From: Candidatus Gottesmanbacteria bacterium | GTDB lineage: Bacteria; Patescibacteriota; Microgenomatia; UBA10105; UBA927 | Length of the DNA stretch: 54,059 nucleotides | Assembly (NCBI GenBank): GCA_023245335.1 | Contig: JAHFKK010000001.1 | Span: 1,164,053-1,218,111 of the forward strand | Reading direction: 5' to 3' | In this document: piece after piece, positions 24,312 to 54,059 of the stretch | Position numbering within the stretch: the stretch's first letter is position 1 | Layout: each line of letters begins with the position of its first letter | Translations under genes and position numbers: made by a program | Notes under the pieces: generated by a model | Seen by the model: only the letters and a program-made list of their open reading frames with translations | Database searches by the model: none | Told to the model about the DNA's origin: nothing

Positions 24312-25922
24312 TTATGATTCCTTCTTCGTTTCCGGCTCGCGGGCGTGGGATGGATTCGTGCGTTCCGCTTCCCTAGCTTTGCGCTTTAACTCCTGGCGGG
24401 CATGCTTGGCGTTTGTCTGGATTGTCCGGTTCATACTATCTAGAATCCGGTCTTGCGGCGGCAGAATTACTGGTTTGGTCGACACATCGATGTGTACCTC
24501 CTTTATCTGCTGACCGAAATTTGGGGACAGATTGCTCTTTTGCTTAGCTTTCTGTGACGCTCTCTTTTCTAAAAACAATGCTTTATCCCGAATCGACTGT
24601 GACTGTCGTGCGTCATCTTCTTCATTCCGCGCAGCGATCCCCTCTAATGAAGTAGTTGCTGTACGGGGAGATTCTTTCAAGCGTCGCCTCAGGGGAAGAA
24701 TCCCTTTTTGAGTGGCTTGTCCAAAATCTTTTTGCTCTTCAAAGATGTCCGGTAATTGTTGTTTGAGACGCATGATGACCCGCTCTGCTTTTGATACAGG
24801 GAGATATTCTGACGCGAGAAACTCCTGCAATCCCTGTGCGGTAGCGCGGGGCAACCCGGGAAATCCTTCCCGTTCCAATTGGTCCAAAAACGCCTGACGC
24901 GCCTCTGGACGCTTTACGAAATTGGGCATAGCGTGATCTACCCAAACCTCTGCAACCCGACGCATAAGGCCGCGGCGATTCTTCTGGGAAAGGGCGCCTC
25001 TGTCTTGCGACAACACCCGTACTGCAGCACGCATCGCTTCATAAGCTTCCAGGGGGGGCGGCGTAGTATGCATTTTTTCCAACACAAAGTTAAACCCCGG
25101 CGATTCTTTCGGCGAAACAGCTCCATCCGATATTTTTGGCCCAATAGAAGAAATATCGGGGTGTAAATCCGCACGCATGAGTCCGGTGATATGCTTCGCG
25201 CGACCGAGCGGTACGTCAGAAGCCCGTAATATGCGCTTCATCCCGGGCGCATCGGCCTGAACCCAAAGATCATACAGTTTGGCGCCGTCAGCCGCACGAG
25301 ATCCCCAATGATGCTTTTTCGACGCATCAGCATGAGCACGGATGAATAGTTGTTTCATTCCGTTCCCAAGGTCTGTCCGGGAAGCGTCATCGCTCACGCG
25401 TGTAATGTCCCTGAATAAAGGGCTGTAGTCCGGATTATGTACGTTTGCCATGATGGTAGACAGTATGGCGGTAAGCCCCGCAATTTCTATAGGTTTCGCC
25501 CCGGTCCTGTCAGTAACCGCACCCCCAACACTGGTCAAGTATTGTGCAAGTTGTTTCGGCGGCTTCGGCAAGTCCACTTCAATGCGCTTCAGGTTACGGT
25601 CGGCTAAAGTTGTTTTCAACAATTCCAGTAATTTCTGTCCGGCGACGGCTGCACCAAATACTTCCGCTGTCGTGACTCCCACTGCGGCGTACGTCGCCGC
25701 CTCTTCAATTCCGACATGATGATCTATAAGCCACTGCCTTTGTTTGGAATTGAGTTTGGGAGCTACTTTTTCTACAGCTTCGAGTATCCTTCTTTTCCAA
25801 GCGCCGGGCCCCTGACTCTCTATTACTTTCTTCGTGCCATCCCACGCGCCATACAACACCTGTTTCACCCCGGTGTGCAAGGGTTCCCGATACGGCATTA
25901 CTGCTGGTGCGCTTTCTATCAT
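24312..25922 (-). CDS. Hypothetical 536-aa protein
   Basis: Long ORF; one Ala/Gly-rich hydrophobic stretch; charged C-terminus. Confidence 0.8.
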   Translation of the reverse strand: MIESAPAVMPYREPLHTGVKQVLYGAWDGTKKVIESQGPGAWKRRILEAVEKVAPKLNSKQRQWLIDHHVGIEEAATYAAVGVTTAEVFGAAVAGQKLLELLKTTLADRNLKRIEVDLPKPPKQLAQYLTSVGGAVTDRTGAKPIEIAGLTAILSTIMANVHNPDYSPLFRDITRVSDDASRTDLGNGMKQLFIRAHADASKKHHWGSRAADGAKLYDLWVQADAPGMKRILRASDVPLGRAKHITGLMRADLHPDISSIGPKISDGAVSPKESPGFNFVLEKMHTTPPPLEAYEAMRAAVRVLSQDRGALSQKNRRGLMRRVAEVWVDHAMPNFVKRPEARQAFLDQLEREGFPGLPRATAQGLQEFLASEYLPVSKAERVIMRLKQQLPDIFEEQKDFGQATQKGILPLRRRLKESPRTATTSLEGIAARNEEDDARQSQSIRDKALFLEKRASQKAKQKSNLSPNFGQQIKEVHIDVSTKPVILPPQDRILDSMNRTIQTNAKHARQELKRKAREAERTNPSHAREPETKKES

Positions 25923-25926
25923 ACGT

Positions 25927-25964
25927 TTCTTTTGTCAACTTTCCCAATTGGGAAAATTAACAAA
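25927..25964. repeat. Palindromic site 1 downstream of the PaaX/Cas2-like gene
   Basis: 34-bp palindrome at 25931-25964 (15/17 pairs) with perfect core TTTCCCAATTGGGAAA; 25927-25956 matches 26629-26658 at 27/30. Confidence 0.9.
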
Positions 25965-26013
25965 TTAATTTATTTTCCCTTCACCAAAATATATTTATAT
26001 ATATCTTTATATA

Positions 26014-26592
26014 TCATAATTTAAATATTTTCCTGAGATCCTCGTCGTTCTCCAAAGAGCATATAGTCGCAATCTTCACAAAATGCGGGATACCATATAC
26101 TTCCCGTAAAAATTGAATCTGCTTGTCGCAGGGATACGGATACACGTACACACTCTTTTGCATTTGATAAAAGCCTATCGATTTGAGGTGATCGCGAAAG
26201 GCGGCGCGGACATGTTCTTCACCGGATGGGATATCAAATATCACCATGCGCCACATACCATCCCAATGCGTTTGCGTCGGCACTTCCAGGTCATGCACAT
26301 CATACCGAAGTATTTCTGTTTTACCACGATCGGAAAGCGTCACGGCATAACCGCCGCGAGACTCCGTCACCTGTGCATATCCATGTCTCCAAAGTCGAGT
26401 CAATTGGCGATTTACTGAAGAAGGATAATAGACCTCCCAATCCGGCCCCATGTGGCTGAGCGGATGACGAAATTTAATGTGAAACGTGTCAATAACTTCA
26501 ATGGCCAATGAGGCTCCAGACTGGAGAAGCAACAACAATATTTCTTTCGTTATATGCTCATGCGGCTTGGATAGTTCACGATGTCTTGCCAT
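26014..26592 (-). CDS. PaaX-like regulator: winged HTH + Cas2-like domain
   Basis: LTRLWRHGY...TLSDRG wing; WDGMWRMVIFDIP...R..L...GF...QKSVYV. Confidence 0.85.
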   Translation of the reverse strand: MARHRELSKPHEHITKEILLLLLQSGASLAIEVIDTFHIKFRHPLSHMGPDWEVYYPSSVNRQLTRLWRHGYAQVTESRGGYAVTLSDRGKTEILRYDVHDLEVPTQTHWDGMWRMVIFDIPSGEEHVRAAFRDHLKSIGFYQMQKSVYVYPYPCDKQIQFLREVYGIPHFVKIATICSLENDEDLRKIFKL

Positions 26593-26610
26593 ACATTCCC
26601 TGCTCTCTAT

Positions 26611-26640
26611 ATTTTATGTGCTTCAGAATTCTTTTGTCAA
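26611..26640 (-). promoter_or_regulatory. Promoter of the PaaX-like gene
   Basis: Minus strand TTGACA-N18-TAAAAT; the -35 lies inside palindromic site 2. Confidence 0.6.
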
Positions 26641-26672
26641 TTCTACCAATTGGGAAAAATTACAAAAGAATT
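26627..26672. repeat. Palindromic site 2 upstream of the PaaX/Cas2-like gene
   Basis: 46-bp palindrome (19/23 pairs) centred on CCAA|TTGG. Confidence 0.9.
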
Positions 26673-26725
26673 TGTGTCTTCATATGACTTGACGCGGACA
26701 CCGTGTATCTGCCTATACTGGATAT

Positions 26726-27607
26726 ATGGAACCCGCACCCATCAAAGCCGAGATGCCCCCGAAGCTCGCCCCCGAAGCCAAACCCTCAGCTCCCGTTCCA
26801 GCCAAAGAGCAACCCGTACCGTCAGAAAAATCAGCAACTTCGGCCGATGCTACTACCCCACGCGGTCAACTGGAAGCGATTGCCAAAGGCACACCCGTCA
26901 AAGAAGCGACCGCGCAAAAAGCAGAAACCGTGGCACTACCCGACCGAGAAAAGGTAGACGCGATACTCTCTGAAGCAAATACCCTCCTTCTAGATCTCCG
27001 AGATATGCGGTTCCTTCTCACGGCCGTCGCAAGCCAGGCGGCGGACACACCGCTCGGTAATGAGATGCGCCTCGATACGCTGCGGATTATCGGAAAGATG
27101 AGTAATGCCGATATGCCTCCGGAAGCGGTTATGAAGCTCGACGCATTACAAAAACAGGTAACCGAACTGAAGCTCCCTGACCCCGCACCGGAAAAAAGTG
27201 CGCTTCTTCCCATTATAGAAGTGTATAATCAAGCTCATCCGGATAAAGCGGTACCCGCGGAAGTTATTGATCAAATCAAATCCGGAAGCCGTGAAGCTTC
27301 TACTACCGTAGCCCAATTCCTCCAAACGAATCCCGACTTAGCCCAGCCGGTTTGGAAAGAATTGACCGGTGTAGAAGGATTTACCGGTTTACATCTCACC
27401 CCGACGAACGTACTGGAACTTGCAAAATTACCTGCTTCACCGGAAAATGTGGCTAAAGCGAAAGAGATGTTCGGCACAATCCAAAAAATGTCACCCGCAC
27501 AGCAGGAAAGCCTCAAGGATTATCTGGTTCCCCGGGCTATGTTTGGAGCTATGCTCCTTATGGCTGTCATCCAAATCGGCACCGGCCAAGGTGACGGCGG
27601 ACATTAA
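26726..27607 (+). CDS. Hypothetical protein with C-terminal TM
   Basis: 293-aa ORF; TATACT 6 nt before ATG; C-terminal hydrophobic helix. Confidence 0.8.
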   Translation: MEPAPIKAEMPPKLAPEAKPSAPVPAKEQPVPSEKSATSADATTPRGQLEAIAKGTPVKEATAQKAETVALPDREKVDAILSEANTLLLDLRDMRFLLTAVASQAADTPLGNEMRLDTLRIIGKMSNADMPPEAVMKLDALQKQVTELKLPDPAPEKSALLPIIEVYNQAHPDKAVPAEVIDQIKSGSREASTTVAQFLQTNPDLAQPVWKELTGVEGFTGLHLTPTNVLELAKLPASPENVAKAKEMFGTIQKMSPAQQESLKDYLVPRAMFGAMLLMAVIQIGTGQGDGGH

Positions 27608-29532: not shown

Positions 29533-31380
29533 CTATGATCCACGCTTTAACACCTGAAAAAATGCGGACTGGGGTATTTCAACACGGCCTACTAACTTCA
29601 TTCGCGCTTTTCCCTTTTTCTGTGCCTCCAGGAGCTTGTCTTTCCGCGTCCGATCTCCGCCGTAAAGCTTCTTCGTCACGTCTTTACGGAACGCTTTCAC
29701 GTCAGCTCGAGCAATCACCTGACCCCCGATAGCCGCCTGTATGGGGATTTCAAACTGCTGGCGTGGGATGACCGCAGCTAAACGCTCGACCAGTTCGCGA
29801 CTGCGGACAATCGAAGCATCGCGGGTGATAAGAAACGACAACGCGTCGACCTTTTCTTTATTCACGAGAAGGTCGACTTTCACTACTTCCACATCCTGCC
29901 AGTCAAAAAACTCATAGTCCAGGCTGGCATACCCTTCCGTTACACTCTTCAGCCGGTCAAAAAAATCGACGATCATTTCCGAAAGCGGGATCATGTACAC
30001 AAAATGCGCCTGGTCACCGACGTATGTAAGGTCCATATAGACTCCCCGCTTCTCTTGAGCGAGCTGCATGATGGCACCTGTATATTTTTTGGGGCTATAG
30101 ATATCGACATTCATGATAGGCTCTTTGACCGAGGCTACCTGGGACGGATCCGGATACTCCTCGGCAGACTGGATACTCACGGTTGCCCGTCCGTCTTCAT
30201 AGGACAAAAGCTGTGTCTGTGTAAAGCCCAGCTTGCCATACTCGACGCCGGAAGCCAGTGTTAGCCGATACTCCACGCTCGGGCTGGTTGCGATCATCGT
30301 AAGCCCAAATTCCCGTAATATGCGCTCCTGAACCACTTCTGCGTGCAAAAGTCCCAAAAATCCGCAGTGGAACCCGTTTCCCAAAGCCATAGAGGAGATC
30401 GGACGGAAGGTGAAAGCGCTGTCGCTAAGACGTAGTTTCTCAACGGCTTCGCGCGAATCCTGATATTCATCGGCAGCCAAAGGAAATAGTCCCAAAAATA
30501 CCATGGACTTGGGCTCCTTATACCCCGGCAACCGATCGACCGGGCTATTGCCGATCGTCATGGTATCTCCGACTTTGGCAAGCCGCACGTCCTTAAGTCC
30601 TGTCGCGATATATCCCACTTCTCCGGTCCGCAACTCTTGCCCATGGACCATCTGCGGCATGAAGTATCCGACTTCTATGGGATTAATTTCTGTTTTTGAT
30701 GCGAGAAAATTAAGCCGAAGTAGTGGATCATACCGTATACTACCATCTACTATACGTACAAAAACTACCACACCCTTGTGTGTATCGTATTGCGAAGAAA
30801 ATATGAGCGCGCGTAGCGGTTTATCGTGATCACCGGCCGGCGCAGGAACCTTGGTGACAATTGCCTCCAATACTTTATCGACATTTTTGCCGGTCTTTGC
30901 AGATATTTCTATCATTTCTTCATCGGTGAATCCAAGCGATCGCAATTCCGTCTTCGTTTCTTCTATGCGTGCCGCAGGCATATCGGTTTTATTGATAAGG
31001 GGAATGACCGCAAGATTATGCTGGCGGGCCTGATGAAGATTTGCGAGTGTCTGCGCCTGTACACCCTGTGTGCTGTCTACCACGAGAAGCGCGCCCTCGC
31101 ATGCCGCCAAAGACCTGCTCACTTCATAGCCGAAGTCGACATGTCCGGGAGTATCGATAAGGTTCAGGATATAATCCTTCCAGTGCATACGGACGGGCGC
31201 GAGCTTGATGGTGATCCCGCGTTCCTGCTCGATGGGATTGCTGTCCAGGAGCTGTGCATGCATATCGCGCTGAGCGACCGTGTGGGTCATCTCGAGCAGC
31301 CGATCGGCAAGCGTCGACTTCCCGTGATCGATATGGGCGATGATGGCGAAATTCCTGATGTGGGATTGGCCCGAAGTCAT
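29533..31380 (-). CDS. lepA: Elongation factor 4
   Basis: IRNFAIIAHIDHGKSTLADR, DTPGHVDF, NKTD, GFHCGFLGLLH, KLYGGD.TRK.KLLE.QKKGK. Confidence 0.98.
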   Translation of the reverse strand: MTSGQSHIRNFAIIAHIDHGKSTLADRLLEMTHTVAQRDMHAQLLDSNPIEQERGITIKLAPVRMHWKDYILNLIDTPGHVDFGYEVSRSLAACEGALLVVDSTQGVQAQTLANLHQARQHNLAVIPLINKTDMPAARIEETKTELRSLGFTDEEMIEISAKTGKNVDKVLEAIVTKVPAPAGDHDKPLRALIFSSQYDTHKGVVVFVRIVDGSIRYDPLLRLNFLASKTEINPIEVGYFMPQMVHGQELRTGEVGYIATGLKDVRLAKVGDTMTIGNSPVDRLPGYKEPKSMVFLGLFPLAADEYQDSREAVEKLRLSDSAFTFRPISSMALGNGFHCGFLGLLHAEVVQERILREFGLTMIATSPSVEYRLTLASGVEYGKLGFTQTQLLSYEDGRATVSIQSAEEYPDPSQVASVKEPIMNVDIYSPKKYTGAIMQLAQEKRGVYMDLTYVGDQAHFVYMIPLSEMIVDFFDRLKSVTEGYASLDYEFFDWQDVEVVKVDLLVNKEKVDALSFLITRDASIVRSRELVERLAAVIPRQQFEIPIQAAIGGQVIARADVKAFRKDVTKKLYGGDRTRKDKLLEAQKKGKARMKLVGRVEIPQSAFFQVLKRGS

Positions 31381-51948: not shown

Positions 51949-54059
<2,111 letters not shown>

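Follow-up and report, generated by a model that had tools for sequence, protein, structure and literature searches.

Two copies of a long palindrome bracket a single small gene in the genome of a Candidatus Gottesmanbacteria bacterium, and we consider them to be, probably, the cognate operators of the transcriptional regulator encoded between them. The locus lies near the middle of a 54,059-nucleotide (nt) stretch of contig JAHFKK010000001.1 (assembly GCA_023245335.1, positions 1,164,053 to 1,218,111), which we refer to throughout as the window and number from its first letter. The bracketed gene (26014..26592, minus strand) encodes a protein of 192 amino acids (aa) with a winged helix-turn-helix (wHTH) at its N terminus and a C-terminal Cas2-like ferredoxin domain (residues 114–189). 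We call it mini-PaaX because it stops where the effector domain of the repressor PaaX would begin. Taken singly, the locus is an ordinary-looking autoregulated repressor. That the same site–gene–site architecture, in which each paralog has a palindrome of its own, recurs before essential genes across the Patescibacteria (Candidate Phyla Radiation, CPR) is unexpected and well supported by controls. These organisms are hard to cultivate and have few recognisable regulators, and their transcriptional regulation is poorly characterised. A preliminary description of the locus had offered two readings: operators at both ends of the gene, which would also cover the starts of the neighbouring genes, or an excisable or mobile cassette. 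The former fits all of the comparative evidence presented here.

The palindrome pair is readily recovered from the window sequence itself. Compared directly, positions 25927–25956 and 26629–26658 are identical at 27 of 30 positions, and the match extends over 45 nt at 84% identity (25927–25971 against 26629–26673), with a start-to-start distance of 702 bp. The alignment and the list of open reading frames (ORFs) thus bear out the repeat, its spacing, and its single enclosed gene as first described. The pairing reported for the two palindromes, each centred on CCAA/TTGG, was likewise reproduced: positions 25931–25964 form a palindrome with 17-nt arms (15/17 paired) and positions 26627–26672 one with 23-nt arms (19/23 paired), their centres (25947/25948 and 26649/26650) again being 702 bp apart. 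Exactly one ORF, that of mini-PaaX, lies between them. When the 54-kb window was searched with the degenerate pattern TTGTNAA-N5-CCAATTGG-N5-TTNACAA, just the two bracketing places were found, and a chance repeat was ruled out by dinucleotide-preserving shuffles, which gave no matches. The two copies had also been called co-oriented, a property that carries almost no meaning, because each copy is itself palindromic and an inverted alignment of the two (82% over 44 nt) is therefore nearly as good as a direct one (84% over 45 nt). We refer to the palindromes, neither of which is assigned a strand, as the predicted proximal (upstream) operator, the 46-bp palindrome at 26627..26672, and the predicted distal (downstream) operator, a 45-nt repeat copy at 25927..25971 with the 34-bp palindrome as its core.

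What kind of protein is encoded between the sites? Pfam scans of the 192-aa protein returned PaaX_M (PF20803; 71.5 bits against a cut-off of 24, E = 6.3e-20) and Cas2 (PF09827; 26.8 bits against a cut-off of 23.8, E = 6.2e-6), the two matches covering residues 108–181. The NCBIfam PaaX model TIGR02277 aligned with residues 60–182 over model positions 37–156, at 28.1 bits versus an equivalog cut-off of 264.55. PaaX_C had no Pfam match in the protein, which ends at residue 192, directly past the Cas2-like domain. In an AlphaFold2 model (alignment of 32 homologs; predicted local distance difference test score of 81), the wHTH consists of a helix (16–24), a beta hairpin (29–44), the recognition helix (57–69), two wing strands (73–78 and 81–86), and a further helix (88–100), and is followed toward the C terminus by a beta-alpha-beta-beta-alpha-beta domain. 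Foldseek ranked PaaX of Escherichia coli W best (Protein Data Bank 8a39; 186 aligned columns), then the PaaX-like protein Rv0674 (3kfw), and then many Cas2 structures.

PaaX of E. coli W is thus the closest known relative in structure, sharing both the N-terminal wHTH and a Cas2-like central dimerisation domain (PF20803). It differs in being ~305–316 aa long, with a C-terminal phenylacetyl-CoA effector domain that the 192-aa protein lacks. Mini-PaaX also falls below the equivalog cut-off, has no paa genes among the ORFs scanned around it, is bracketed by its own putative operators, and belongs to a Patescibacteria-specific family with several paralogs per genome. By analogy, then, mini-PaaX would work like PaaX without being its equivalog. 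The analogy extends to the sites, although in sequence only: both systems have a long palindrome over a promoter, which for mini-PaaX measures 34–46 bp and covers the −35 box. The E. coli protein recognises TGATTC-N27-GAATCA, acts as a repressor of its own promoter, and at its Px and Pz promoters it competes with RNA polymerase (PMC9493321). Since mini-PaaX has the PaaX fold and PaaX uses a long split palindrome, a palindrome of 34–46 bp over the −35 box is what would be expected of such a dimer.

The C-terminal domain is also homologous to Cas2 of the adaptation machinery of clustered regularly interspaced short palindromic repeats (CRISPR), which with VapD counts among the closest known systems. 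Its FDIP motif, an instance of the FDxP motif of strand beta1, aligns with the FDLP/FDMP of type II-A Cas2, with the Asp kept. D120 is invariant in 32 homologs, as are W110, D111, W114, R115, Q145, S147, and C155. Unlike Cas2, this domain is fused to a wHTH and has neither cas1 nor a CRISPR array beside it. A search of the window found no CRISPR array, tRNA, or Rfam match, the sole repeat array being coding triplet repeats at 53–54 kb, and a CRISPR-like unit was rejected on these grounds (no array, no cas1, no Rfam match). The earlier statement that the window is free of CRISPR arrays therefore stands in full, and its companion claim about paa genes holds for the 12 neighbouring ORFs that were scanned (the two flanking genes and 10 more, 17.2–34.8 kb), among which no paa or cas domain was detected. 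The database name "CRISPR-associated endonuclease Cas2" carried by some relatives is a misnomer here, and the present assignment corrects this recurrent mis-annotation. A phage or defence origin is unsupported as well: the PHROG search gave no matches, PADLOC reported the Cas2 domain alone for mini-PaaX, and the viral contigs of IMG/VR contained no relatives.

How would the two sites act? The regulator has a promoter-like element, TTGACA-N18-TAAAAT (26611..26640, minus strand), that matches 11 of 12 positions in a consensus scan. Its −35, TTGACA on the minus strand, is one arm of the proximal site, as first described, so that the operator centre falls at about −45. A divergent 293-aa gene (26726..27607, plus strand) lies on the side of the second arm, TTACAA on the plus strand. 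The distal site lies in the other intergenic region, 66 nt past the regulator stop and immediately ahead of a co-oriented 536-aa gene (24312..25922, minus strand), the putative target. This copy had been described as retaining TTGACA with no −10 at normal spacing, which is correct for that arm but overlooks a second promoter-like element in the same operator, TTGGGA-N18-TATGAT (25918..25947, minus strand, 9/12), that reads into the 536-aa gene. The first ATG of the 536-aa ORF (25922) is ~10 nt past the operator arm and overlaps the −10-like TATGAT; initiation from this element would shift the start of the gene to M9, with its ATG at 25898. Between the regulator stop and the distal operator (25972–26013), the window is AT rich, with alternating TATATA and overlapping palindromes at 25989–26012. 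This interval also holds a weak promoter-like ATGATA-N18-TATATT on the minus strand, which would set the distal operator just downstream of a transcription start.

In the mechanism that we propose, a mini-PaaX dimer would bind each 34- to 46-bp palindrome, its two wHTH domains reading the outer arms (TTGACAAA, ~27 bp apart) and the inner CCAATTGG core probably being contacted or bent. At the proximal site, which lies over the regulator's own −35, we infer that binding would repress rather than activate, giving negative autoregulation, and it would probably co-regulate the divergent 293-aa gene. At the distal site, over the promoter or 5′ region of the 536-aa gene, the bound protein could repress, block read-through, or loop with the proximal site, three modes that cannot be separated here.

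Are both sites kept in related genomes? When one genome for each GTDB species was scanned with a sequence pattern, at least 512 relatives were recovered, essentially all of them in metagenome-assembled genomes of Patescibacteria (some records bear automatic "Gammaproteobacteria" or "Saccharibacteria" labels). Six orthologous loci or groups of loci keep both sites. In the four closest, the regulator is 63% (L001), 60% (L109–L111, P0003), 59% (L112–L113, P0006), and 57% (L114, P0005) identical to that of the window, and the flanking genes are kept too. Homologs of the 536-aa protein are encoded downstream of the regulator in L001, L109, L112, and L114 (blastp 1e-13 to 1e-26), and homologs of the 293-aa protein divergently from it in L001, L109, and L112 (49–54% identity, 1e-77 to 1e-114), that is, wherever the locus reaches upstream; the contig of L114 ends too near to judge. 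In the fifth, L003 (49% identity), the inner core of both sites is altered to GTGCAATTGCAC. The sixth, a metagenomic locus (L096), has its two sites 655 bp apart amid other neighbours, a 308-aa divergent gene and a 310-aa LmbE-like gene downstream. The consensus over both sites of the orthologs is TTTGTNA-N5-CCAATTGG-N5-TTGACAAA. The upstream site is kept in L001, L096, and L109–L114, with a degenerate copy in L002, and in every upstream copy the perfect TTGACAAA is the promoter-proximal arm, consistent with its serving both as −35 box and as operator arm. Beyond the module itself, lepA lies ~3 kb from the regulator both in the window (29533–31380) and in L112 (1–823), indicating that the wider neighbourhood is syntenic.

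How widespread is the bracketed layout beyond these orthologs? The preliminary description had suggested asking whether each paralog has its own palindrome pair, and it does so in most cases. We compared the 300 nt before the start with the 300 nt after the stop, by ungapped matching, in 79 Patescibacteria loci with usable flanks, whose proteins are 30–63% identical to that of the window. A significant match between the two flanks was found in 51 of 79 loci and in none of 79 mismatched-locus controls, while shuffled flanks scored at most 12. The common element is a palindrome of 30–48 bp that differs between paralogs, with a centre mostly of the GC-NNNN-GC type (CGATCG, GCTATAGC, GCACGTGC, or CAATTG). 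Assemblies contain several paralogs whose palindromes differ from one another; the specificity determinant must therefore be linked to each gene. As in the window, the upstream site appears to sit over the promoter: −10-like hexamers peak 30–35 nt from its centre (17/44 loci), which places it at about −45, over the −35. When each locus was scanned over ±3 kb with its own upstream palindrome, a second copy was found in 34 loci, in 33 of them 8–157 nt past the regulator stop and nowhere else within that range. The centre-to-centre spacing ranges from 584 to 817 bp (median 682). The family is large, with 5,136 clusters at 50% identity (E ≤ 1e-3; 2,899 at 1e-10), and almost all of the best 150 clusters listed have lengths of 180–240 aa. 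We found nothing in the open-access collection searched that describes this family or its bracketing sites.

Past the distal site lies a varied set of mostly essential genes, which include uppS, infB, ileS, dnaX, alaS, rsmA/ksgA, tpiA, rplU, and gyrB, as well as genes for a PIF1 helicase, tRNA-Gln, tRNA-Val, and tRNA-Ser. Their positions relative to the cassette are stable across species: it precedes ileS in three loci (L023/24/27), infB in three (L055/57/58), and tRNA-Gln in four (L009/19/29/35). Two of these neighbourhoods have peculiarities of their own. In a Yonathbacteria locus (L023 3601–6447), the isoleucyl-tRNA synthetase encoded downstream of the cassette has a histidine-phosphatase (His_Phos_1) domain inserted at 528–692. 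In L028 (3434–4858), tRNA-Ser comes next after the distal palindrome, and beyond it lies, on the opposite strand, a serine-recombinase gene that is truncated; this arrangement may mark the border of an element that integrated at the tRNA.

Does the sequence of the palindrome follow that of the protein? By eye, half-site positions 10–17 from the centre track the type of recognition helix: YYPSS..RLWRKG pairs with T(T/G)ACAAAT, SLNRAI.SLY.SKLVSTKDN with ATTGCTG/ATTGTTA, and GYLRQSL.RLE.QKL with TTTGTGAT. This tracking, together with the matching of the two sites within a locus and their difference between paralogs, is also what a generic hairpin would leave unexplained, and it counts against a reading in which the palindromes act at the RNA level. 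There they would be hairpins that terminate or stabilise the regulator mRNA and the upstream transcript at their 3′ ends, with no involvement of the protein. Long mRNA-strand hairpins are possible at both copies in the window (−18.3 and −14.2 kcal/mol), the distal copy is very probably transcribed, and across the family the distal copy is more often the more perfect palindrome (19 loci versus 11, not significant). The upstream copy, however, overlaps the −35 and would lie outside the gene's own transcript, and a T tract (at least five T in the next 8 nt) follows just 2 of 44 distal sites. We therefore regard the RNA-level reading as very improbable. Intrinsic terminators in particular were rejected on the T-tract count and because there is no terminator-like prediction at either site in the window.

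Several observations weigh against the view that the palindromes are simply operators through which mini-PaaX controls its own gene and the next. The covariation with the recognition helix that the preliminary description had proposed to test was only partly borne out: pairs are indeed paralog specific, but in partial Mantel tests the site distance was related to the Cas2-like part (partial r 0.165) about as strongly as to the HTH part (0.14), both significantly, so that an HTH-specific signal is not separable from phylogeny. Pfam and NCBIfam scans detected no recognisable effector domain in mini-PaaX. The Cas2-like domain may still be a nuclease, given that the FDIP Asp, which is catalytic in Cas2, is kept. 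None of the sampled 31-letter words of the region was present in the RNA runs of the same study. The position of the distal site is a further difficulty. It lies at a median of 43 nt from the regulator stop (interquartile range 20–58) and of 88 nt from the next co-oriented start (interquartile range 69–184), and it is present even where the next gene is convergent, as with thrS 29 nt away (L048), ndk (L040), and a gene for an M50 peptidase (L075). The distal site is thus not simply an operator of the next gene; it tracks the regulator stop more tightly, and this tie is the one feature that a plain model of a regulator plus a next-gene operator leaves unexplained.

These positional data raise a tentative possibility, one that refines the operator reading rather than opposing it: the sites may serve the regulator gene itself, through a repression loop of ~700 bp or as roadblocks to read-through, with control of the neighbours secondary. 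The constant placement of the second site just past the stop would follow from such a role, as would its retention beside convergent genes (also in L053 and L070) and the retention of both sites in L096 despite its different neighbours. The confined range of spacings is compatible with it too, as is a weak helical phasing of the two sites, although that signal is marginal (Rayleigh p ~ 0.04 at 10.5 bp, uncorrected). On the other hand, a loop would call for tetramers of mini-PaaX, which are hypothetical, the downstream gene is conserved in the window orthologs, the distal site overlaps promoter-like elements, and in many loci a −10 of promoter-like sequence, a tRNA, or a gene comes after the distal site. 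The orientation of the next gene does not discriminate: it is co-oriented in ~72% of loci, which by our estimate is roughly ordinary gene order.

Binding by mini-PaaX would also account for copies of the site elsewhere. In a scan of metagenomes, two motif copies in identical context (L082 7082–7113 and L105 1839–1870) have no mini-PaaX gene nearby; they lie 2 nt past the stop of a gene for a secreted-looking protein of 584/607 aa and are followed by a GIY-YIG gene and a large serine recombinase. Another orphan (L104 1346–1377) falls inside a 478-aa membrane-protein ORF. All three show the same TTTGTCAA..CCAATTGG..TTGACAAA palindrome and come from samples that also contain the full cassette. 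The groundwater metagenome of the window itself yielded a third copy, a 41-nt match to 25930–25970 with four mismatches on a 14,282-nt contig of run X2 (at a similar depth, 13.7 versus 12.6), whose flanks are unrelated (GCGGTAAAGCTAGAATATTTTCTGGAATTA ... ATGGGAAGAGTTTTTGACGCGACGGGGGAA); a 251-nt contig of run X3 also carries a divergent third copy. Copies away from the gene are what a trans-acting DNA-binding protein would produce, and these extra sites would suit a DNA-binding regulator whose regulon is small. Alternatively, they may be what is left where a cassette was lost.

The latter would be in keeping with the second of the two initial readings, in which the 702-bp unit is excised or moved through its palindromes, by the Cas2-like domain of the protein or by host recombination. 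The unit does recur in many contexts, upstream of unrelated housekeeping genes and tRNAs, and as several paralogs per assembly; orphan single sites exist, though in unrelated contexts, and one of them adjoins GIY-YIG and serine-recombinase genes; and the catalytic Asp of Cas2 has an invariant counterpart. Nevertheless, the idea is not supported. The two copies have no constant polarity, 16 loci favouring the direct alignment, 15 the inverted, and 13 neither, and target-site duplications or terminal inverted repeats were rejected on this ground (although copies of a perfect palindrome that decayed independently would lose their polarity too). Paralogs in one assembly have different palindromes and are therefore no recent copies. 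Positions are conserved among species, both in the ileS, infB, and tRNA-Gln groups and in the three-gene module of the window, which is syntenic in the orthologs at 57–63% identity (L001, L109, L112, and L114). Scans with Pfam, NCBIfam, PADLOC, and PHROG found no transposase or recombinase domain in mini-PaaX, only the wHTH and Cas2-like domains, and the family is absent from IMG/VR. Nor were excision joints present in the assembled contigs of three metagenome runs, which is a weak test, as contigs drop rare forms. We therefore consider mobility of the cassette highly unlikely.

How does the operator reading of the mini-PaaX bracket relate to known systems other than PaaX? Lrp/AsnC (feast/famine) proteins combine a wHTH with a small ferredoxin-like alpha/beta oligomerisation domain and are local, autoregulated, and rich in paralogs. 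The design is analogous only: mini-PaaX has no AsnC/RAM sequence match, and its second domain is Cas2-like. In phage lambda, the CI gene lies between OR and OL, both bound by CI and one overlapping its own promoter; the operators are tripartite and 2.4 kb apart, and looping through an octamer is proven. The likeness is in layout only, as the sites described here are single long palindromes ~0.7 kb apart on a chromosome, and any looping between them is hypothetical. RAYT/REP systems (REPtrons) also have a single-copy gene flanked by cognate palindromes, each paralog with its own repeat type. RAYTs, however, are homologs of HUH/Y1 transposases, and dispersed REPs number tens to hundreds, whereas mini-PaaX is a wHTH regulator and no copies beyond the two flanking ones occur in the window.

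Because a pair of private 30- to 48-bp sites accompanies each gene, the family amounts to a natural library of regulators and operators, from which a recognition code and parts for synthetic biology might be drawn. The locus and its 79 relatives offer a directly testable assignment of protein to operator within a family of thousands of clusters. They also raise the question of why a second operator should be tied to the regulator stop, and why the cassettes precede essential housekeeping genes. One speculative answer, which we hold with considerable doubt, is that the bracket defines a very large Patescibacteria family in which a private palindrome at each end makes the gene a self-insulating regulatory cassette. 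Such a cassette would loop or roadblock around its own gene, typically before essential genes (those for aminoacyl-tRNA synthetases, infB, gyrB, dnaX, and tRNAs), and would be inherited and spread as a unit; it might be a domesticated selfish element whose Cas2-like domain still acts on DNA.

The 536-aa protein has no family in Pfam, NCBIfam, PADLOC, or PHROGs, and its orthologs, 349–1033 aa long, are fast-evolving. The 293-aa protein, whose gene shares the upstream operator region, has no significant match in the same four collections; its N terminus is rich in Pro and Ala, and it has a hydrophobic C-terminal stretch. Most genes at 27.9–34.8 kb are likewise without a Pfam family. At the far end of the window (53079–54059), dense periodic repeats of 9, 18, 27, 45, 54, and 81 nt, rich in GGN codons (TRF scores of at most 267), run off the window end and look like part of a gene for a collagen-like Gly-X-Y repeat protein.

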